Part shown: piece after piece, positions 1,976-36,466 of the stretch
Position numbering within the stretch: the stretch's first letter is position 1
How the letters are laid out: every line of letters begins with the position of its first letter
Notes under the pieces: model-generated
The model's input: only the letters and a program-made list of their open reading frames with translations
The model's database searches: none
What the model was told of the DNA's origin: nothing
IMG/VR virus record: IMGVR_UViG_3300037424_000224
Location: 1-64,000 of that record
Length of the DNA: 64,000 nt
Reading direction: 5' to 3' (one strand)
DNA from: a virus
Lineage: Duplodnaviria > Caudoviricetes
Program-made: the position numbers and the translations under genes

Positions 1976-3837
1976 TTTTCCCCTTTCAAAACAGTTTCAA
2001 AGTTAATATCAATTAATAGATTTTCAATTGCTACTCGGTTGGCCCCAAATGGTAGTTTGGATTCCTGCTCTGCTTTTAAGATACGCTGTTCACCATCAGC
2101 GGCATATTGTACAATCTGGTCATAAGTAAATAAACCGTTTCGTACTTCTAACAAGAACTTAGCATCTGGTCGTGGTAAAGTAATATTACCTGTAAGTAAA
2201 AGTTCCTCACCCTCTGTAATTAAACGGACTAAGTGCATACCATGTTTGGTATTTCCCTGAAAAGAGACCTTATTATTGTGGCGGGTGATTAAAGACTCAT
2301 TTGGAACAGTAAAACAAACTATATTTCCAGTATAATCAACCTTTTCTATTTTGTTATTTAATATTACATAATTAGTTTGCTTTGTGTCTTTAGTACCAGT
2401 TATATAAACTTGATACATTCCAAAGCCGGGGTTAACTGTAGAATTATGCCCCGCCAAGATAGACAGAAATTGAACTTGTTTTGCAAGAACAAAACTATTT
2501 GTATAGTAGACATAATTTCCACGTTCTTTGAAAGTACCGTCTCCTAATAATAATGAATATAATAAAACCCACGCCTGTCTCTTTGTCAAATGAATATAAA
2601 AATCCGGTAAATGTTTATTTCTTGATAGATGCCCACACATATTATATAAGGCTAAAGAAAGGGTTTTATTTATACACCAAATAGTCTCGTCATAACCTCG
2701 ATTCTTTCTAAAGTATTCGTACCTACCAGAATACATTTCCTTCGGTAAACTATCCATCATATCAAAGAATCCCTGCTTACCGTTCGGGGTTTGAGTGATT
2801 CTTGCACACTTCAAATTACCCTTATGAAAATTAATAGTTCCTTCCGAAATATACGCCCCTAAGAGTTTTAAAAATTCGTCTGTAACGCCCTCATCAACGT
2901 TATTATTTGTAGGAAGTGCTAAAACATGAAAATTTGATTTTGTACCATCAATTAGAGTATATAAAGGATTGAACCCCCACACACTATCACATTCCGTAGA
3001 ATAGTTATTTGATGCTTGTCTATGACAACCAGCAACGTACATTCTGTGATTTGAGGTTACAAAACAGTCTGTGTGTAAAGATTCTAAATGGTACATCAGG
3101 CCACTATAGGGCTTCTTGACTCGTTCAGTAAATTGCTGAAATTCTACAAAATTACCATTAGGATTAATGGTTCCTAGAAAATCACCGTTTTGTACATCAT
3201 CGTACAGTTTCCATCCAGTAGATGTTAAGAACTCAGTATCTTCTGAATAACAATCATAACCATACTTTGCTTCTAATTCGTGTCTAGCAGGGTTTCGGTT
3301 CTTTTTCCATTCATTATAGTTAGTCCACTTATTGTGGGCGTTACTATAAGCATTTTGTTCTATACCGCTAGGCCAAGACCAATTACCTTCCTCATTCCTA
3401 TATGCACCAAAATCTTGAGGTTGAGCATCTGGTGGTACTTTACCCGTCATATACTCGTGGTGCATCTTCATACGTTTCATCTGTGCAAAAGCATACCCAG
3501 TAAAAGTATGTCTGGCTTTTCTACTGATAATTAAATAACGATGTTGTAAAATCTTAGCCCATGTATCTGTTACTTTGATACAAGTCTCCCCTACAGTTGG
3601 GGCGAATAGAATCTCTACTATATTAGGGTTACAGTCAGCGGCTAAGGTAAGGAACTTACTAACCCCAAAAATTGTTCGGTCAGGGTCTTTTTGTTCATAC
3701 TGTTCAAAGGGTGACATGCCCAAGATAGACTTAAAGGGTTGTAAAGCTACTCCCCTATAGTCAATATCACTTGTAGGTATAGAAGTTCCATATAAGTGGC
3801 TTCCGTGTAAGGTTTCAAAGATTATATCTAATTCCAT
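1972..3837 (-). CDS. Pol-beta-superfamily nucleotidyltransferase (RlaP/PF10127-like) with a 334-aa intein; about 287 aa mature
   Basis: HGSHLYG..SDIDYRG motif; removing the intein restores GYD|TKHGMHLVRL. Confidence 0.85.
   Translation of the reverse strand: MELDIIFETLHGSHLYGTSIPTSDIDYRGVALQPFKSILGMSPFEQYEQKDPDRTIFGVSKFLTLAADCNPNIVEILFAPTVGETCIKVTDTWAKILQHRYLIISRKARHTFTGYAFAQMKRMKMHHEYMTGKVPPDAQPQDFGAYRNEEGNWSWPSGIEQNAYSNAHNKWTNYNEWKKNRNPARHELEAKYGYDCYSEDTEFLTSTGWKLYDDVQNGDFLGTINPNGNFVEFQQFTERVKKPYSGLMYHLESLHTDCFVTSNHRMYVAGCHRQASNNYSTECDSVWGFNPLYTLIDGTKSNFHVLALPTNNNVDEGVTDEFLKLLGAYISEGTINFHKGNLKCARITQTPNGKQGFFDMMDSLPKEMYSGRYEYFRKNRGYDETIWCINKTLSLALYNMCGHLSRNKHLPDFYIHLTKRQAWVLLYSLLLGDGTFKERGNYVYYTNSFVLAKQVQFLSILAGHNSTVNPGFGMYQVYITGTKDTKQTNYVILNNKIEKVDYTGNIVCFTVPNESLITRHNNKVSFQGNTKHGMHLVRLITEGEELLLTGNITLPRPDAKFLLEVRNGLFTYDQIVQYAADGEQRILKAEQESKLPFGANRVAIENLLIDINFETVLKGEK
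2251..3252 (-). mobile_element. Intein with LAGLIDADG homing endonuclease
   Basis: Block A CYSEDTEFLT (Cys codon 3252-3250), block B TSNH, LAGLIDADG-like LLGAYISEG and LLYSLLLGDG, block F VCFTVP, ends QGN followed by Thr+1. Confidence 0.88.
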
Positions 3838-3853
3838 TATAACTCCTTTGCTG

Positions 3854-3985
3854 TTAGTTGAAAATGCAGACCTTGGTAACTATAACAAAATCCTTATCTT
3901 TGTACGGAATTCCTAGAAGTTGGTCACGTACACAACCACCCGCTAAAAAGAATTCACAACCTTCAATTTCTGGAAATTCAATCAT
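3854..3985 (-). pseudogene. cca: 43-aa N-terminal remnant of a CCA-adding enzyme/poly(A) polymerase-family gene (not in ORF track)
   Basis: MIEFPEIEGCEFFLAGGCVRDQLLGIPYKDKDFVIVTKVCIFN*; matches the class II signature xGGxVRDxLLG..DxD and stops right after it. Confidence 0.75.
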
Positions 3986-4017
3986 TTTTAACCTTCTTTC
4001 TTAGGTATAAAAATACC

Positions 4018-4227
4018 CTAACACTTAATCTTTCGTGCTAGGGTATTTATTTTACTAAACTTTGCTATATCTTCTTCATGTGGAATCCACAATAACTCTC
4101 CGGTCTGTTTATTCCAATAGCAGACCCCATTTTTATTCTCACAAATATAATCCCAAATATCAGGACTACCTTCTATGATTTCATCAGCTTTATCCGATGA
4201 AATTTCTGTTAAAATGTATCTTTCCAT
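4018..4227 (-). CDS. Hypothetical protein
   Basis: 69-aa ORF with upstream AGAAAGG RBS-like sequence, in operon orientation. Confidence 0.6.
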   Translation of the reverse strand: MERYILTEISSDKADEIIEGSPDIWDYICENKNGVCYWNKQTGELLWIPHEEDIAKFSKINTLARKIKC

Positions 4228-4240
4228 TTTTACCTTTCTG

Positions 4241-4313
4241 TCCGATGTAGGGGGCTCGAACCCCTATCGACTCATTCACAGTGAGTGATTTTAACCAATT
4301 AAACTAACAAAGG
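4241..4313 (-). tRNA. tRNA-His(GTG), degenerate
   Basis: Anticodon arm ACTCA-CTGTGAA-TGAGT, T arm AGGGG-TTCGAGC-CCCCT; acceptor CCTTTGT/ACATCGG has two mismatches; no encoded CCA. Confidence 0.7.
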
Positions 4314-4321
4314 GATATTAC

Positions 4322-4873
4322 TTATAATATATAAAATGTCACATTAAAACATAAAAATCTAAACGTTAAACTTGTCCAATAATGCTCTAAGTTTCTGTAG
4401 CCAATATCAAATAGTAATGCCCACCAATGATAATCAATTGAAAACTTCATATCTTATCCTCTAGAAATTTTTTTATAATTTGATACAGTAAGGAACCAAC
4501 TCCTACGAATAAGAATGTTCCACCAACAAACACAACTGCAAAATCTGGCCCTAATAAAATCATTTGTTTTTCCTAATATGTTGTTTATACCAGCCTATTT
4601 CAACTACGATAATTGAACCACTAAAAATTAGTAAGTACCCAATTGCTTCTGAGTTTGCGAACACTACTAATATGTTACCTGAATTCATCTTATTACCTTT
4701 CAGCCTATTGGCATACGAGAATCGGTTAATTCTTTTATTAAAAGTTCTTCGATTTCTTTTAATTTTTGGTCAATTACTTCGGTTTGAGAAGGATGGTCAC
4801 CCCAATCTTTGAACTTACTAAACAATGCTTCCTTGTACAACTTAATGAGTTGTTCTGCTTTTTCTCTGTTCAT
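4322..4873 (-). other. Four small ORFs (4322-4450, 4447-4563, 4560-4688, 4700-4873; 38-57 aa), two of them single-TM peptides
   Basis: Hand-translated; ATGA start/stop overlaps join the three leftmost; below the ORF-track cutoff. Confidence 0.55.
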
Positions 4874-4903
4874 AGTTGCGCCTTTCCTTTCAATACAAGA
4901 TAG

Positions 4904-4975
4904 CAGGGGTAGTAGGACTCGAACCTACAGTCGTGGTTTTGGAGGCCACTGGTTTGCCAATTAACCGATACCCCT
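4904..4975 (-). tRNA. tRNA-Trp(CCA)
   Basis: Acceptor AGGGGTA/TACCCCT, D stem GGTT/AACC, loop CTCCAAA, T arm GTAGG-TTCGAGT-CCTAC; no encoded CCA end. Confidence 0.88.
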
Positions 4976-4984
4976 AAGAAGTCC

Positions 4985-5227
4985 CTAAAAGGGAACTTCA
5001 AAAAACTCTGGTTCTTTAAAATCTTCTAACATTACCACTTTGAGGGGACGACCTTTGAAGCGTTTGTGTGTTTCGGGGCCTACTCGAATCATCTCGGCTA
5101 AAGCACCTTCAACCTTGAGAATCTCAAATGAGCGTTTTTCCGTTCCACCAAATCCTACTACCTCGAATACGTCGCCTACGTTGTGAAAACTAATGTTTAG
5201 TGTAAACTTATTCCTTGCCATTGGCAT
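4985..5227 (-). CDS. Hypothetical protein (about 80 aa; true start MPMARNK, downstream of its own promoter)
   Basis: The track's longer ORF reads through a promoter; RBS AAGGA lies upstream of ATG 5227; GC above the flanks. Confidence 0.6.
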   Translation of the reverse strand: MPMARNKFTLNISFHNVGDVFEVVGFGGTEKRSFEILKVEGALAEMIRVGPETHKRFKGRPLKVVMLEDFKEPEFFEVPF

Positions 5228-5543: not shown

Positions 5544-6280
5544 TTACCAAGTCCCCACAGACAATCGTGGAGTTCCTCTAGGATAACTACGTCACCTTCA
5601 TTATGCTCTAGAACGCCTTTAAGAGCTTTTTCGTCACCATACTTAGCCAATCTCCAATAATCCTTATCTAGTGGAGTCTTACCTTTAATTCCCAAATACT
5701 GACAAGCATTGTCCAATGACTTTCTACTTAAGTTCATCTTAGATTTAACTACATAGTACAAATCCCAGTGATAAATAGAAGGAATTAATACAGTCTTGGC
5801 AGTATTACCATTAAATTGTACTACTTTCTCATAGCCAGGAAATACGTACCCGTAGTGCATGGCCTTACTTCTAATATAAGGAATATCAAAACCAGTCCCA
5901 TAATAGGTTACTAGAATATCAAAACCATTCATTTCGTTGATTAAATCTTGTACTAATCTACTATCTGTTACTCCATTAAAAAGTTCTTCTTTAGTGATTA
6001 CATTGGAATAAATTGCACCACCACGTTCTTTGATACAGTAACTCAACATCGTACTAAAGTCAGCCTTTAATCCGTCTGATTCAATATCAAGGTATCCAAT
6101 TCTTAATCCATCATACCACGATACGGCCTTATTAATTGGTAGTCCATTCTTATCAAAACAGCGTCTATGAGTTTCAATCGTGTGGCGGTGAATACATCTA
6201 AGTTCATTCATTATTTTCTGTGTCCTCAATTGGGATATTGTTGCTACTATCTTTTCTATAACTGCGTTCTTTTTGTTCAA
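5522..6280 (-). CDS. DEDD 3'-5' exonuclease (RNase_H_2/YprB-like)
   Basis: YLDIESD, LVTYYGTGFDIPY, HNEGDV; real start probably MNELRC. Confidence 0.8.
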   Translation of the reverse strand: MNKKNAVIEKIVATISQLRTQKIMNELRCIHRHTIETHRRCFDKNGLPINKAVSWYDGLRIGYLDIESDGLKADFSTMLSYCIKERGGAIYSNVITKEELFNGVTDSRLVQDLINEMNGFDILVTYYGTGFDIPYIRSKAMHYGYVFPGYEKVVQFNGNTAKTVLIPSIYHWDLYYVVKSKMNLSRKSLDNACQYLGIKGKTPLDKDYWRLAKYGDEKALKGVLEHNEGDVVILEELHDCLWGLGKWERKPL

Positions 6281-6413
6281 AAGACATTAAGTATCTAAGC
6301 CAAGGTTCGTCTATAGAACCCTTGTAGGTATCCCAATGCTCTTTGCACAAATAGTTAAAGCCAAATATGATTTCTTTTCCACAAATGCAACATTCACGCA
6401 TAGTATAAATCAC
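6204..6413 (-). CDS. Small zinc-binding protein
   Basis: CxxC...CxxH pattern. Confidence 0.55.
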   Translation of the reverse strand: MIYTMRECCICGKEIIFGFNYLCKEHWDTYKGSIDEPWLRYLMSFEQKERSYRKDSSNNIPIEDTENNE

Positions 6414-6669
6414 CTACCCGTTTAATTAATGCTGTCAAACGCTTGGCGGTAGTCTTTCTATCAAAACCAATCATCAGGCTTATCTTTCTAAAACTAAATC
6501 CGGCCAATAACAGTTGTAAACTCTCAATATCTTTTATTGATATTTCGTCAAACTGATACAGATTTCTTAGGATTAGGTCTACATCCAGTGTAGACTGAAA
6601 TTCGTCACTGTTCAAATCCATTTCTTTATAAAAATGGTAGTTGGTCAGTGCTTCTGAAACTCCTATCAA
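6394..6669 (-). CDS. HTH DNA-binding protein (sigma region 4-like)
   Basis: LQLLLAGFSFRKISLMIGFDRKTTAKRL. Confidence 0.55.
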   Translation of the reverse strand: MIGVSEALTNYHFYKEMDLNSDEFQSTLDVDLILRNLYQFDEISIKDIESLQLLLAGFSFRKISLMIGFDRKTTAKRLTALIKRVGDLYYA

Positions 6670-32083: not shown

Positions 32084-33013
32084 ATGGAAAATAAAGAAAT
32101 TACTCAAGAATTTAAAGATGCTTATTCGGCAGTAGCCAAAGATAAGAGTCAGAGAGATGCTTTTTCTGAACTAATTGTCAAATGGATTCAGCCAAATCAC
32201 CTAAGTTCAAATCTAGTTAGCCTATTCCTAAATACTCGCAGTATAAAATCTGGCGATGCTATGGTCTACAAAGTTCGTAGAGGAATGGAAGTTCGTAAGT
32301 TAGTACCTGGTACTATCCCACTACAGAGTGAAGTTGCTGTAAACGATAGAATCAATTACGCCGTCGAGTTCGCTCAGGTCGGCCTAACCTATAATCTTTG
32401 GGAACTAGAATCCGGTGAAATCGGTACTCTAGGTGAACTACAGAATGAAATGCGAGCAAAACTATCTGATTACTATGTTAATCGGGTATTTACGGCTCTT
32501 TCGACAATTTGGAGTACCGTAAATACTCCTACTAACTACACCAATGTTGGTGGTACAGTTACTGCTACAGCCCTCAAGAACGCTATTGATAACATCAATC
32601 TAAAGGTCGGTCGTGTTCGTGCAGTAGTTGGTACTCGTAAGGCGTTGACTCCCATCACCACTTTTGGTGCTGGTTGGGATACAACTACAGCCGCAGGTAC
32701 AACTCAGCAAGCCAATTACCCAGCTCTAAACGAGATTTGGCAAACTGGCTGGCTAGGTCGTTACTATGGTGCACCAATTGTTGCACTAGACCAGATTTAT
32801 GATAATCCTATCGACTACAGAGCCATGCTCCCAGAAGATAAGATTCTTGTAATTGGTGAAAATGTTGGTGAGTTCCTAATGTACGGGGATGTCAAGTCTC
32901 AAAACTATGACAGAATGGATGTAATTCCACCTCAGTATATGTTAAACATTTTTCAATCTTTTGGCTTAGTAGTTACTAATGCCCAAGGTATACATATCTT
33001 AAAAGTTAGTTAG
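32084..33013 (+). CDS. Major capsid protein (HK97 fold), unspliced 309-aa form; spliced form is 32084-32951 joined to 34048-34109, also 309 aa
   Basis: ATG 32084 after AAGGTGA; capsid-type size and position, with GWLGRYYGAPIV near the C-terminus. Confidence 0.85.
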   Translation: MENKEITQEFKDAYSAVAKDKSQRDAFSELIVKWIQPNHLSSNLVSLFLNTRSIKSGDAMVYKVRRGMEVRKLVPGTIPLQSEVAVNDRINYAVEFAQVGLTYNLWELESGEIGTLGELQNEMRAKLSDYYVNRVFTALSTIWSTVNTPTNYTNVGGTVTATALKNAIDNINLKVGRVRAVVGTRKALTPITTFGAGWDTTTAAGTTQQANYPALNEIWQTGWLGRYYGAPIVALDQIYDNPIDYRAMLPEDKILVIGENVGEFLMYGDVKSQNYDRMDVIPPQYMLNIFQSFGLVVTNAQGIHILKVS

Positions 33014-34047
33014 AAATGAAGAAACTTTTTTCAGAAGAGGATGATTTGCTACTGAAAAAATTCTATGCAGAAAAAACAAATAAAGAACTAGTTGAATTAC
33101 TAAACGGACAGTTTTCCAGAGACCAAATCAAATGGAGAGCAAAAAGTCTAAAATTAAGTAAACTTCCTGAAACAAACTTAAAATCACAACAGACTAGAAA
33201 TACTTGTTGGAAAGAGTGGGAAGTAGAAATAGTTAAAAGACACTATCCAAATGAAGGTTACTTGGGATGTTTAAAATATCTACCCAATAGAACTGAACAA
33301 CAAATTACATACAAAGCACAGCGATTACATATAAAAGTTTCTGAGGAACGCCGTTTACAAGTACAGTCCACTTATTACGGCGTGGCTAAACATACAGAAG
33401 AAACTAAACAAAAGATGTCACTAGCACGTCTTGGTAAGCCATTTACACAAGAACATATTGATAACTTAAGAAAGTCCTGTAAGCGGGGTATAGAACATCC
33501 CAATTATAAACATGGGCAATCAAAGAATCAGTATCCAGATGTTTTTAATATTCCTTTAAAAGCAAAGATACAAAAACGTGACCATTATCAGTGCCAAGTA
33601 TGTAAAAAGAAGCCCTCTTGGGGCAAATTAGTAATTCACCATATAGATCATAATAAAGAAAATTGCATAGAAACTAACTTAATTACTTTGTGTCGGTCTT
33701 GTCATGGAAAGTATCATAGTCCATACAATAGAGACCAGTTAAAGCAACAACAAGACTTTAACGACATTATTAGCGGTCAAAAGAAGAATGTAATAGATGG
33801 TAACATCTATTTAGCAACAGACCAAATTGCTGGAAACTCTGGGGATATTCAATTAGTTACCGAAATCAGTAATGATATACGGCAATCTGAAAATATTGAA
33901 TTGCAGACAATCAGCAGCCAAGTATCCTGAAGGGATAAAGGTTCAACGACTAGAGGGTTTGCTCCTATTTATAGGATGATAGTATAGTCTGGTCTTATTA
34001 GCGATAATAAGAGTTGGAAGATAACCGACTTCCAGAGTAACAGCAAG
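32952..34047 (+). mobile_element. Group I intron in the major capsid gene, with an HNH ORF and a recoded copy of exon 2 in L1
   Basis: P1 exon ACATTT/IGS GAATGT (33786-91, G.U at the splice site); P2 AATAGATG/CATCTATT; P3 CAGACC/GGTTTG; AATTGCTGGAAAC, AATCAGCAG, GGTTCAACGACTA, TATAGTCT core; omega-G 34047. Confidence 0.88.
33016..33930 (+). CDS. Intron-encoded HNH homing endonuclease (HTH repeats + NUMOD3 + HNH)
   Basis: KHTEETKQKMS (NUMOD3); HHIDHNK.N..NLITLCRSCH; the 3' end overlaps the intron core. Confidence 0.9.
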   Translation: MKKLFSEEDDLLLKKFYAEKTNKELVELLNGQFSRDQIKWRAKSLKLSKLPETNLKSQQTRNTCWKEWEVEIVKRHYPNEGYLGCLKYLPNRTEQQITYKAQRLHIKVSEERRLQVQSTYYGVAKHTEETKQKMSLARLGKPFTQEHIDNLRKSCKRGIEHPNYKHGQSKNQYPDVFNIPLKAKIQKRDHYQCQVCKKKPSWGKLVIHHIDHNKENCIETNLITLCRSCHGKYHSPYNRDQLKQQQDFNDIISGQKKNVIDGNIYLATDQIAGNSGDIQLVTEISNDIRQSENIELQTISSQVS

Positions 34048-34109
34048 ATCAACAGTTCGGTCTTATTGTAACAAACGCGCAGGGAATTCACGTCTTAAAG
34101 GTTAGCTAA
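34048..34109 (+). CDS. Major capsid protein exon 2, (Y)QQFGLIVTNAQGIHVLKVS*
   Basis: In frame after splicing; 16 of 20 aa identical to the copy at 32951-33013. Confidence 0.85.
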
Positions 34110-34128
34110 TTTCCCTTTTGGGAGTATT

Positions 34129-34165
34129 ATAAGGGAGAGTTACTAAAATGACTCTCCCTTATTTT
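34129..34165 (+). terminator. Intrinsic terminator after capsid exon 2
   Basis: AAGGGAGAGT/ACTCTCCCTT stem followed by ATTTT. Confidence 0.7.
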
Positions 34166-34185
34166 GTATAAGGATAGGTAAGGAT

Positions 34186-34671
34186 ATGGAAAATAACATG
34201 AATCAAATAGCGTCACTTATGTCTAAAGAACCATATAAACGCTATATTAAAGCAACACTAGGCAGAGTAGTAGTTAAGATTCTAGACCCGATCACAGGAC
34301 AGCAGGTAGAAGTAGTTCTATCAGGCGATCCTAAACTAAAGGAAGAATCTTGTATTTTAGATTTGTGGACTTCTACTGAGCAAACTTATTTTGAAAGAAA
34401 TAATAAACAGATTTTAGGGGAAGGACTTTTGGTAGATTTTAAAGAGTCTATTGAAGCAGTTCCTACTGCAAATAATGTTACTGATACTCAGATTGTAGAC
34501 GCCCTGACAGGTAAGTTTTTCCAAGTAAAGAAACTACTTGATGGCTTCACTAGCACAGCTCCCGTAGAAAGAATGCTTACTCTAGCAGAAGAAATGAATC
34601 GACCAGTTAAGACTATTGATGCAATCAAAGGTAAACTAGCAGAACTTCAAATTTCAGAATACGAAAAGTAA
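34186..34671 (+). CDS. Hypothetical head-module protein
   Basis: Position; strong RBS. Confidence 0.55.
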   Translation: MENNMNQIASLMSKEPYKRYIKATLGRVVVKILDPITGQQVEVVLSGDPKLKEESCILDLWTSTEQTYFERNNKQILGEGLLVDFKESIEAVPTANNVTDTQIVDALTGKFFQVKKLLDGFTSTAPVERMLTLAEEMNRPVKTIDAIKGKLAELQISEYEK

Positions 34672-35284: not shown

Positions 35285-36466
35285 ATGAAAAAAGTATTAG
35301 TAGTAGGAGATGGTGGAGTGGCAACTGGATTTTCTCGTGTACTCCATTCTATCATCGATAACTTTCCAGATGAAAGTTACGAATTTCATCATTTAGCAGT
35401 TAATTATAGAGGTGACCCATATAAGGTAAAGAATCCCAATCATTATTTATATCCCGCCATGTTAGGTGGAGATATATATGGTATGGGAAGGATTCAGAGT
35501 TTATTAGCTAATATTGAGCCGGATATAATTTTTATACTGAACGATTTATGGGGTATAGAAGCATATTTACAGAGACTTAGTGAACATGACCTAAAAAAGG
35601 TAGTTGTATACTTTCCAGTAGATGGAACTTACAGTGATAAACAATGGCTTAATAACTTTAATAAGTTAGGGGCAGTTGTATCCTACACTAAATTTGGTAA
35701 AGACGAAGTATCTATCTTAGACCCAAGTTTGGATGTTAAAATTATTCCACATGGAACTGATACTAGTGTTTTCTTTCCAGTTGATAAAAATTATGCTAGA
35801 AATGTTTTAAAAGTCATCTCAGCTGACGACTTTGTAGTATTTAATGGTAATAGAAATCAACCAAGAAAACGTATTGATTTAACTATTGAAGCATTTGCTA
35901 AGTTTGCACAGAATAAACCAGATAATGTAAAGCTTTATTTACATATGGGAGTACAAGATTCCGGCTGGGACATTAAAAAGATGTCAGCTCGGTACGGAAT
36001 TTTAGATAGGGTAATTATAACGAGTGAGAGATTATCTCCACAAACATCAGTTCCAGTAGAGATGTTAAATATAATATATAATTCTTGCGACATTGGCATA
36101 AACACATCAATGGGGGAAGGCTGGGGCTTAGTAAATGTAGAACATGCAGTTACTGGGGCGGCACAAATAGTACCCAATAGCTCAGCTTGTGCTGAAATTT
36201 TTAAGGACTGTGGAGCATTAATTGATATTGACCATTACGATACTCACCCTAATATTCTTACTGTTGGGGCAGTTATAAATACTGATTATGCAGCATTTTT
36301 ATTAGATTACCTATATAAGAATCCTACACAAAGACAAAACTTAGGTGACTCAGCACAAATAAAATTTAGTAGTCCAGAATATAGTTGGAAAGAAATTTCT
36401 AAACAGTGGTTGGACTTATTCGAGAAGGTCATAAATGATAACTTGGCCCGCACAACTAGTAAATGA
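35285..36466 (+). CDS. GT4-family glycosyltransferase inside the head-tail joining genes
   Basis: GVATGFSRV, PHGTD, NRNQPRKRID, EGWGLVNVEHA, YSWKEI. Confidence 0.9.
   Translation: MKKVLVVGDGGVATGFSRVLHSIIDNFPDESYEFHHLAVNYRGDPYKVKNPNHYLYPAMLGGDIYGMGRIQSLLANIEPDIIFILNDLWGIEAYLQRLSEHDLKKVVVYFPVDGTYSDKQWLNNFNKLGAVVSYTKFGKDEVSILDPSLDVKIIPHGTDTSVFFPVDKNYARNVLKVISADDFVVFNGNRNQPRKRIDLTIEAFAKFAQNKPDNVKLYLHMGVQDSGWDIKKMSARYGILDRVIITSERLSPQTSVPVEMLNIIYNSCDIGINTSMGEGWGLVNVEHAVTGAAQIVPNSSACAEIFKDCGALIDIDHYDTHPNILTVGAVINTDYAAFLLDYLYKNPTQRQNLGDSAQIKFSSPEYSWKEISKQWLDLFEKVINDNLARTTSK

Follow-up and report, generated by a model that had tools for sequence, protein, structure and literature searches.

We report here the analysis of a group I intron in the major capsid protein (MCP) gene of a virus of the Caudoviricetes, IMG/VR record IMGVR_UViG_3300037424_000224, of which positions 1 to 64,000 (the window) were examined. 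On the evidence of 11 lineages that share the arrangement, it is likely that this is a mobile intron with an HNH homing-endonuclease gene looped out from its first paired region (P1), and that its first 63 nt are a translated and selected spare of the downstream exon. We refer to this spare, a re-coded and in-frame copy of the last 20 MCP codons and stop that forms the 5' end of the intron, as tail A, and to the downstream exon itself as tail B.

The window presents, all on the + strand and in this order, MCP exon 1 (32084-32951; an open reading frame (ORF) of 289 codons plus the first base of codon 290), tail A (32951-33013), the HNH gene (33016-33930), the ribozyme core (33793-34011) and tail B (34048-34109; the last two bases of codon 290, 19 codons and a stop). 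The intron is 1,096 nt long (32952-34047) and divides the gene 20 codons short of its stop. Read without splicing, the MCP ORF runs from 32084 to the TAG at 33011-33013 and ends ...NIFQSFGLVVTNAQGIHILKVS, with tail A reading FQSFGLVVTNAQGIHILKVS. Joined instead to T32951, positions 34048-34109 translate as (Y)QQFGLIVTNAQGIHVLKVS and a stop, and the spliced C-terminus, tail B, reads YQQFGLIVTNAQGIHVLKVS before its stop. A first-pass annotation of this DNA had noticed that the last 20 MCP codons occur twice, and its coordinates hold throughout: the two tails match at 16 of 20 residues, 13 of these 16 have different codons, both products are 309 aa long, and the HNH gene starts (33016) 2 nt past the stop of tail A.

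This is not an isolated case, which raises the value of the finding. Eleven independent lineages, comprising the window and ten metagenomic relatives (L003, L019, L020, L021, L022, L028, L056, L058, L024 and L029), share exon 1, the HNH gene, the ribozyme core and the real tail, and in ten of the 11 an in-frame tail A is present as well. Near-identical copies were counted once (L023 and L047 with L024; L031 with L029), and a further contig, P0123, has the same gene order. Identity between lineages is 36-68% for the capsid proteins, measured on the final 100 residues of exon 1, and 38-69% for the HNH proteins. The lineages were found through homologues of the HNH protein and through a conserved 19-mer in P9 of the ribozyme. 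A scan of viral contigs with the 19-mer added L023/L024 and re-found L003 as L027, and a scan of metagenomes gave 28 loci, four of which are capsid introns (L028, L029, L031 and L047). A further four or more are group I introns that lie within bacterial 23S rRNA genes or adjoin them, and the remaining hits arose by chance. The exact 19-mer stands in such introns in or beside 23S rRNA genes at L034, L037 and L049 (also L041), with two intron matches at L034, which suggests that the phage capsid-gene and rRNA-gene introns share an intron lineage.

The ribozyme and its long-range P1

The first-pass annotation took the intron to be intact and suggested that alignment to a group I covariance model would bear on this. 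Rfam RF00028 matches 33758-34011 across model positions 1-253 of 253, with 56.5 bits (E = 6e-13) against a gathering score of 50; the search was repeated on the whole record. Together with the RNAalifold consensus, this match places the core from P2 to P9 at 33793-34011, with P2 at 33793-99/33804-10, P3 at 33818-23/33956-61, P4 at 33828-33/33911-16, P5 at 33839-41/33904-06, P5a at 33847-54/33895-901, P6 at 33917-19/33940-42, P7 at 33948-52/33985-89, P8 at about 33963-76 and P9 at 33994-34000/34005-11. The intron closes with the terminal (omega) G at 34047, directly 3' of which stands ATCAACAG; the predicted ligated junction is ...AACATTT/ATCAACAG. In all ten lineages that reach exon 2, a G precedes it and joining restores the frame to Y-Q-x-[FWY]-G.

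P1 spans a long interval. The last six bases of exon 1, ACATTT (32946-32951), pair with GAATGT (33786-33791), with a T32951.G33786 wobble at the 5' splice site, just as first proposed, and three more pairs (TTC/GAA) extend the helix to 9 bp. Its 5' strand is thus 32946-32954, with the splice site after T32951, and its 3' strand, the internal guide sequence GAA.GAATGT, is 33783-33791. The guide lies ~835 nt and the 3' splice site 1.1 kb downstream of the 5' splice site. In every one of the 11 lineages the last six exon bases are complementary to a guide hexamer beginning with G, with U.G at the splice site, and this relationship is kept in nine different sequence versions (L056 and L058 included), among them ACATTT/GAATGT, AAGCAT/GTGCTT, AACTAT/GTAGTT, AGTTAT/GTAACT, AACTCT/GGAGTT, AGGTTT/GGACCT and GCCTAT/GTAGGC. 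The hexamer is the sole candidate in the 95 nt before P3 in eight of the nine lineages measured, the window among them, and it stands 38 nt upstream of the P3 motif in the window and 37-39 nt upstream of it in eight of nine. We read this variation as compensatory change across ~800 nt of coding sequence.

The core behaves in the same way. An RNAalifold consensus of P2-P9 from eight lineages has compensatory double changes in 28 of 43 pairs, examples being the replacement of GACTA/TAGTC by GAACA/TGTTC in P7 of L022 and a compensated P9 in L056. Since the P1 pairing is kept in nine versions and so many core pairs carry compensatory changes, the ribozyme looks active, and both its core and the long-range P1 are under structural selection. 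At the gathering threshold Rfam does not report the introns of L024 and L029 and misses that of L003, whose core is split by a LAGLIDADG ORF; these three cores were aligned by hand-anchored motifs. A local P1-like hairpin, ACATT (33764-33768) with AATGT (33787-33791), which is the first stem of the Rfam alignment, was considered as marking an alternative 5' splice site and rejected: it sets an A, not a U, opposite the guide G, it is not kept in L021, L003 or L029, and it is a by-product of the conserved HNH C-terminal motif F-N-[ND]-[YI]-I. This hairpin could compete with the long-range P1. No convincing P10 pairing of exon 2 with the bases 5' of the guide sequence was found.

The HNH gene is predicted to occupy the ~800-nt loop closed by P1, in line with the first-pass annotation. 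Its 304-aa product matches Pfam HNH at residues 193-235 (25.4 bits, cut-off 21.4; 1.6e-5) with the catalytic motif intact, NUMOD3 just below the cut-off (19.6 bits against 20.4; 9e-4), and 15 PHROG families, 14 of them annotated as HNH endonuclease and one as homing endonuclease. Gene and intron are found together at the same site in all 11 lineages and are both missing from L001, the closest relative (IMG/VR), and from other close relatives. Nearly all close homologues of the protein (40-51% identical) are encoded directly behind a capsid gene, and a scan of viral contigs with the HNH protein gave only distant HNH genes, which lie in other settings. The relatives' ORFs (248-265 aa) start 0-33 nt after the stop of tail A and end 0-11 nt past the guide G (40 nt in L024), nearly filling the P1 loop. 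In the window ORF the stop found at the guide in its relatives is missing, a feature that had been overlooked; ~48 extra codons run through P2-P6 and end at 33930, 145 nt past the guide.

The P1 helix may be longer still. As had been proposed from the window alone, TCTTTTGGCT (32957-32966, codons 3-6 of tail A) pairs with GGTCAAAAGA (33775-33784, within the HNH C-terminal codons) at -15.0 kcal/mol (z = -2.6 against shuffles). Analogous helices are found in L019 (TTTTTCAC/GTGAAAAA) and L020 (GTTTTCCA/TGGAAAAT), and one of 9 bp in L022 (AATTAAATT/AATTTAATT) despite the lack of a capsid-like tail A there. Across lineages cognate duplexes average -11.4 kcal/mol versus -7.7 for non-cognate ones, a sum reached by 161 of 100,000 permutations, and the extension beats shuffles individually in five of nine lineages (z -2.1 to -4.6). 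Codons 3-9 of tail A would therefore double as a strand of the HNH-loop stem, whose other strand encodes the conserved HNH C-terminus. The third residue of tail A varies widely (S, S, I, M, T, N, S, N, R and Q in ten lineages), and where it is serine the codon may be TCT (window and L028) or AGT (L003).

The capsid fold and its two predicted C-termini

The host gene has more than 600 homologues, of ~300 aa each, that carry a precomputed PF27364 annotation, which is the only source of that assignment; among the Pfam models searched none matched the MCP, and a search of PHROGs returned families of unknown function only. An AlphaFold model built on 39 homologues has a mean predicted local distance difference test score (pLDDT) of 67, which is moderate, and 76-85 in the tail region. 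Foldseek places HK97 gp5 and dozens of phage capsids at the top of its matches to the model (probability 1.0, E about 1e-8), and the capsid gene is directly preceded by a portal homologue and a scaffold-like gene. Judged from this model, the host gene is an HK97-fold major capsid protein. GenBank phages offer no cultured relative: at the DNA level only Alteromonas and Bacillus phages matched, over 46-69 nt of intron-core or HNH motifs, and the sole match of a protein search was a 21%-identical Clostridium phage capsid gene.

The splice junction falls at residue 290, which in the model is within the long strand 284-297 of a beta-hairpin, and residues 303-307 form a further strand. Because of this position, an MCP that ended at the splice site would be expected to miss half of the long hairpin and the terminal strand, both integral parts of the fold. 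The C-terminus begins with Y(or W)-Q-Q-[FWY]-G, near-invariant among 120 homologues, and in the intron-less L001, whose MCP is 82% identical, it reads YQQFGMLITNAQGIHVLKLA (with wider context, NIYQQFGMLITNAQGIHVLKLA). Tail B fits the YQQ[FWY]G consensus and tail A deviates from it at near-invariant positions, with F for Y at 290 and S for Q at 292. The other two residues that set tail A apart from tail B are V for I at 296 and I for V at 305. Since tail B agrees with both the homologues and L001 and tail A does not, the comparison identifies tail B as the ancestral, optimal tail. The deviation of tail A is confined to its first five codons, which we attribute to their part in the P1-extension stem.

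Two further features lie beyond tail B. A strong inverted repeat, poor in G+C (GGGAGAGT...ACTCTCCC), and a T run stand directly 3' of the MCP stop, at 34124-34160, and probably form the terminator of the capsid transcript; equivalent hairpins lie behind tail B in the relatives that extend that far (L001, L003 and L019-L024). Three to four genes past the capsid gene, inside the head-gene module, are glycosyltransferase and methyltransferase genes (window 35285-36466; L003:8188-10747), which are kept in L001 and L003 and may modify virion proteins.

Further inserts are present in some of these capsid genes. The intron of L003 (5748-6642) holds, besides its HNH gene, a LAGLIDADG_2 gene (ORF 5949-6542) placed in the core after the 5' strand of P7 and flanked on both sides by a short repeat of the core motif ACTAG...AGG(C), so that two nuclease genes of different families share one intron. 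The capsid gene of L024 (reverse strand, oriented 3627-5171) is interrupted again upstream, between capsid residues ~104 and ~98-onwards, by a ~700-nt insert with a LAGLIDADG-like ORF, and that of L029 (1372-2222) has a second, upstream interruption in the form of a ~850-nt gap between residues 57 and 58. It seems that introns accumulate in the capsid genes of these phages.

Probable selection on the spare exon

The first-pass annotation argued that synonymous differences between the two tails of the window mean that both were kept by selection. As an argument from one genome this falls short: the 13 of 16 pattern does not demonstrate selection on both copies, because a tail imported from a capsid relative of ~83% identity would look alike. 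Exon 1 of the window and that of L001 (83% identical) differ at a proportion of 0.61 of synonymous sites (pS) and 0.11 of non-synonymous sites (pN). Selection on tail A is supported when the lineages are taken together. Tail A is in frame in ten of 11, and its stop is at the same codon as that of tail B in eight of the nine in which both tails are readable. Pooled over eight lineages, tail A and its own tail B have a saturated pS of 0.83-0.89 and a pN of 0.12-0.18. From codon 6 to the end 102 of 124 residues are identical, whereas random placement of as many base changes leaves 58 +/- 3.5 (maximum 70 in 2,000 trials). Every tail A is nearest to the tail B of its own lineage (8/8; 12.5 versus 7.4 identities per 15), and the sum is reached in 3 of 100,000 permutations. 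Compared between lineages, intron-bearing alleles show tails A and B to be equally constrained (pN 0.33 and 0.35, respectively, with pS about 0.77, saturated, in both), and the intron-less allele of L001 carries the tail B consensus, a comparison of the kind that the annotation had recommended. Tail A is most likely translated and selected.

The best-surviving alternative, which we nevertheless regard as unlikely, is that tail A is an unselected hitch-hiker: a piece of an earlier host's capsid gene, carried along by an HNH gene that formerly stood alone and entered the P1 loop by the Bonocora-Shub route to mobile introns or as an mORF-type cassette, and now translated through a chance frame without benefit. 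The layout does match that of fungal mitochondrial mORF hybrids (PMC3630166), the two window tails (pN about 0.1, pS saturated) are as far apart as the capsid genes of two phages whose capsid proteins share ~83% identity, and tail A has been lost in L022. However, the cassette must be old, because its HNH proteins have diverged to 38-69% identity, and over such an age an unread stretch of 60 nt would decay, losing its frame, length, stop and lineage-specific residues. What is seen is a tail that remains open in all but one lineage, nearly always stops where tail B does, accumulates replacements between lineages at the rate of the real exon and tracks its own tail B.

A second alternative is a replacement of the mORF type with a dead intron, in which exon 1 plus tail A would be the sole expressed capsid gene, the HNH gene free-standing, and the core and tail B decaying remnants. 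Gene callers indeed give exon 1 plus tail A as a complete protein, the window HNH ORF enters the core, and the atp6 and cox2 hybrids of fungi have ceased to express the native C-terminus (PMC3630166). The compensatory changes in the core and the covariation of P1 with the exon are not what a dead ribozyme would leave. Moreover, tail B has its frame, stop and YQQ.G intact in each of the ten lineages whose sequence extends that far and is nearer to the consensus than tail A, and L022 has tail B only. This explanation is accordingly very improbable.

Thirdly, tail A might be kept for a role in DNA or RNA, as a homology arm, an endonuclease decoy or a strand of the HNH-loop stem. Its first ~28 nt pair with the last HNH codons in several lineages, and the junction of exon 1 with tail A resembles the intron-less homing site and must escape self-cleavage. 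What is conserved, though, is amino acids and not bases: synonymous sites are saturated, serine switches codon family between the tails of L024 (AGT versus TCG), and codons 10-20, which lie outside the stem, are the best conserved as protein. We give such a role very little credence as the reason for which tail A is kept. Lastly, the source is a sediment metagenome with related phages, in which an assembly might join two capsid alleles, a danger that the annotation had itself raised, but this has a negligible chance of being the explanation since a contig built by another assembler from the probable source run is identical to the window over all of 32600-34300, a second sample gave identical pieces across the A-stop/HNH-start and HNH-end/guide junctions, and ten other lineages from other samples have the layout. 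No RNA run is listed among those that contain 32600-34300, and no intron-less exon joint was present in the DNA contigs of the runs examined, which, as contigs only, are not evidence of its absence.

Several observations weigh against a selected spare exon. The tails are short (20-23 codons) and per-lineage estimates are noisy. The match of each tail A to its own tail B could stem in part from old gene conversion, or from tails swapped with related phages, and re-coding thereafter. Under such a history, too, purifying selection is indicated, since synonymous sites were later randomised while few residues were replaced. F290 and S292 of tail A are non-consensus at near-invariant positions, and a subunit with tail A could perform worse than one with tail B, or fail to assemble at all. 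Alone among the lineages, L022 has no capsid-like tail A: its first 19 intron codons (151-210) read LRIKFINIIKSLFRTLNFA and a stop, and are unrelated to the capsid tail. Having no usable tail A, L022 must splice, and splicing alone would appear to suffice there, making tail A dispensable. The P1 extension, sound in the window, is weak in four of the nine lineages, where it is not significant against shuffles. Finally, translation of the window's HNH extension should disturb ribozyme folding; the same read-through could make the window copy more dependent on tail A.

Proposed mechanism and known systems

The usual view is that mobile introns are passengers, either neutral or a slight burden, and that how efficiently they splice determines the cost. 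How they persist in genes translated hundreds of times per virion is the practical question addressed here. Bacterial ribosomes trail the polymerase and reach an intron before it has folded. In this gene ribosomes running on from exon 1 would have to enter the intron, because from the 5' splice site the polymerase has ~835 nt to travel to the guide and 1.1 kb to the 3' splice site. We propose that tail A is probably kept so that ribosomes which enter the unspliced intron still complete a usable capsid subunit. They would release a complete 309-aa HK97-fold subunit, not a fold-deficient fragment, and RNA that has folded and spliced would yield the consensus tail B.

The same ribosomes would stop 2 nt short of the HNH ATG. 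Because of this spacing, and because the window ATG has no Shine-Dalgarno sequence, the probable route to the endonuclease is termination-reinitiation, with unspliced RNA as its sole message. The stop of tail A lies 0-2 nt from the HNH ATG or overlaps it in the window, L003, L024, L056 and L058; in L019, L020, L021 and L029 the stop comes 11-16 nt before the ATG, and an AAAGGA-like motif stands in that interval. The first five codons of tail A would also supply the first bases of the intron and the P1 extension that pairs with the last HNH codons. The synonymous divergence of the two tails would guard the element against recombination between them, which would delete it precisely, and re-coding may in addition shield the junction of exon 1 with tail A from the element's own nuclease.

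Taken to its full extent, this proposal makes the spare exon the adaptation of a selfish element to life in the most heavily translated late gene. The HNH gene would be re-initiated from it, virions would mix the two C-terminal isoforms, and three roles would fall to the first ~9 codons of tail A (capsid tail, P1 and P1-extension strand, and partner of HNH codons), in a strategy, found in at least ten lineages, by which the intron pays its own cost. We consider the chances of this wider scheme to be evenly balanced. If it is true, the intron brings along a re-coded spare part that makes the unspliced message productive too, and one natural sequence is constrained both as a capsid tail and as an RNA helix paired with the codons of a second gene. 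It would also offer a testable design principle for ribozyme cassettes in essential genes, and it would warn annotators that the ORF as called (exon 1 plus tail A) is not the main product.

HNH-bearing mobile introns are familiar from phages, including those of I-HmuI and I-HmuII (SPO1/SP82 DNA polymerase), I-BasI, I-TwoI and I-TevIII. Like these and the known capsid introns, the present intron combines a group I ribozyme with a homing-endonuclease gene in a conserved and highly expressed gene, with U.G at the splice site and a terminal G. Capsid-gene group I introns are on record in mycobacteriophage LittleE and lactococcal phage Tuc2009, and the authors of the former presume 'extremely efficient' splicing (PMC3706429). 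In these known introns, in-frame reading from exon 1 halts early in the intron and gives a truncated product, and none is reported with a copy of the downstream exon. They also differ from the window in the position of the ORF, which here lies between the 5' splice site and a guide ~835 nt away and in the relatives ends at the guide.

The reading frame that crosses the 5' splice site is shared with yeast and fungal mitochondrial group I introns whose ORFs are fused in frame to the upstream exon, such as the bI4 maturase and aI4 I-SceII. There, read-through produces a maturase or endonuclease precursor, whereas here 20 codons of read-through would complete the host protein, and a separate start codon serves the endonuclease. 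Collaborative homing, reportedly described in 2009 by Zeng, Bonocora and Shub and by Bonocora and Shub for the cyanophage S-PM2 psbA intron and the free-standing F-CphI, resembles our system in that one site of a conserved phage gene is the target of both an endonuclease gene and a ribozyme. Had an HNH gene stood alone directly behind the capsid stop and later been captured by an intron, the present layout would be the result. In contrast to collaborative homing, the endonuclease gene is inside the intron, and the piece of gene that precedes it has been retained and constrained. Our search of the full-text literature found nothing comparable to an intron-borne spare exon in phages, and we know of no intact intron that has a substitute exon as its 5' end with both ends retained.

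A further close parallel is with the mORF elements of fungal mitochondria; the first-pass annotation had noted that free-standing homing endonucleases which duplicate the 3' end of a gene are known. They occur in atp6 of Allomyces macrogynus, in atp6, atp9, cox2 and nad3 of Glomus, in atp9 of Rhizopus and in cox2 of Mortierella, and in Glomus the two C-terminal copies are alike in protein with 64-81% nucleotide identity (PMC3630166). The succession of gene core, inserted in-frame C-terminal copy, endonuclease ORF and native C-terminus is the same, and is kept in ten of our 11 lineages. In mORF genes the inserted copy replaces the native end, which is left as an untranscribed or untranslated remnant (PMC3630166). 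In the capsid genes, by contrast, the native C-terminus does not seem to be displaced, tail B being intact and of consensus sequence in all ten lineages that reach exon 2; a ribozyme stands between the endonuclease gene and the native tail, so that splicing can take out the entire cassette and restore that tail, and both tails are constrained. If our interpretation is true, the 'substitute C-terminus' elements of fungi and true introns would be linked as stages of one process. Mobile group I introns, capsid introns and mORF duplication are all known; what appears to be new is a spare exon that opens an intact intron, with both ends of the gene retained.

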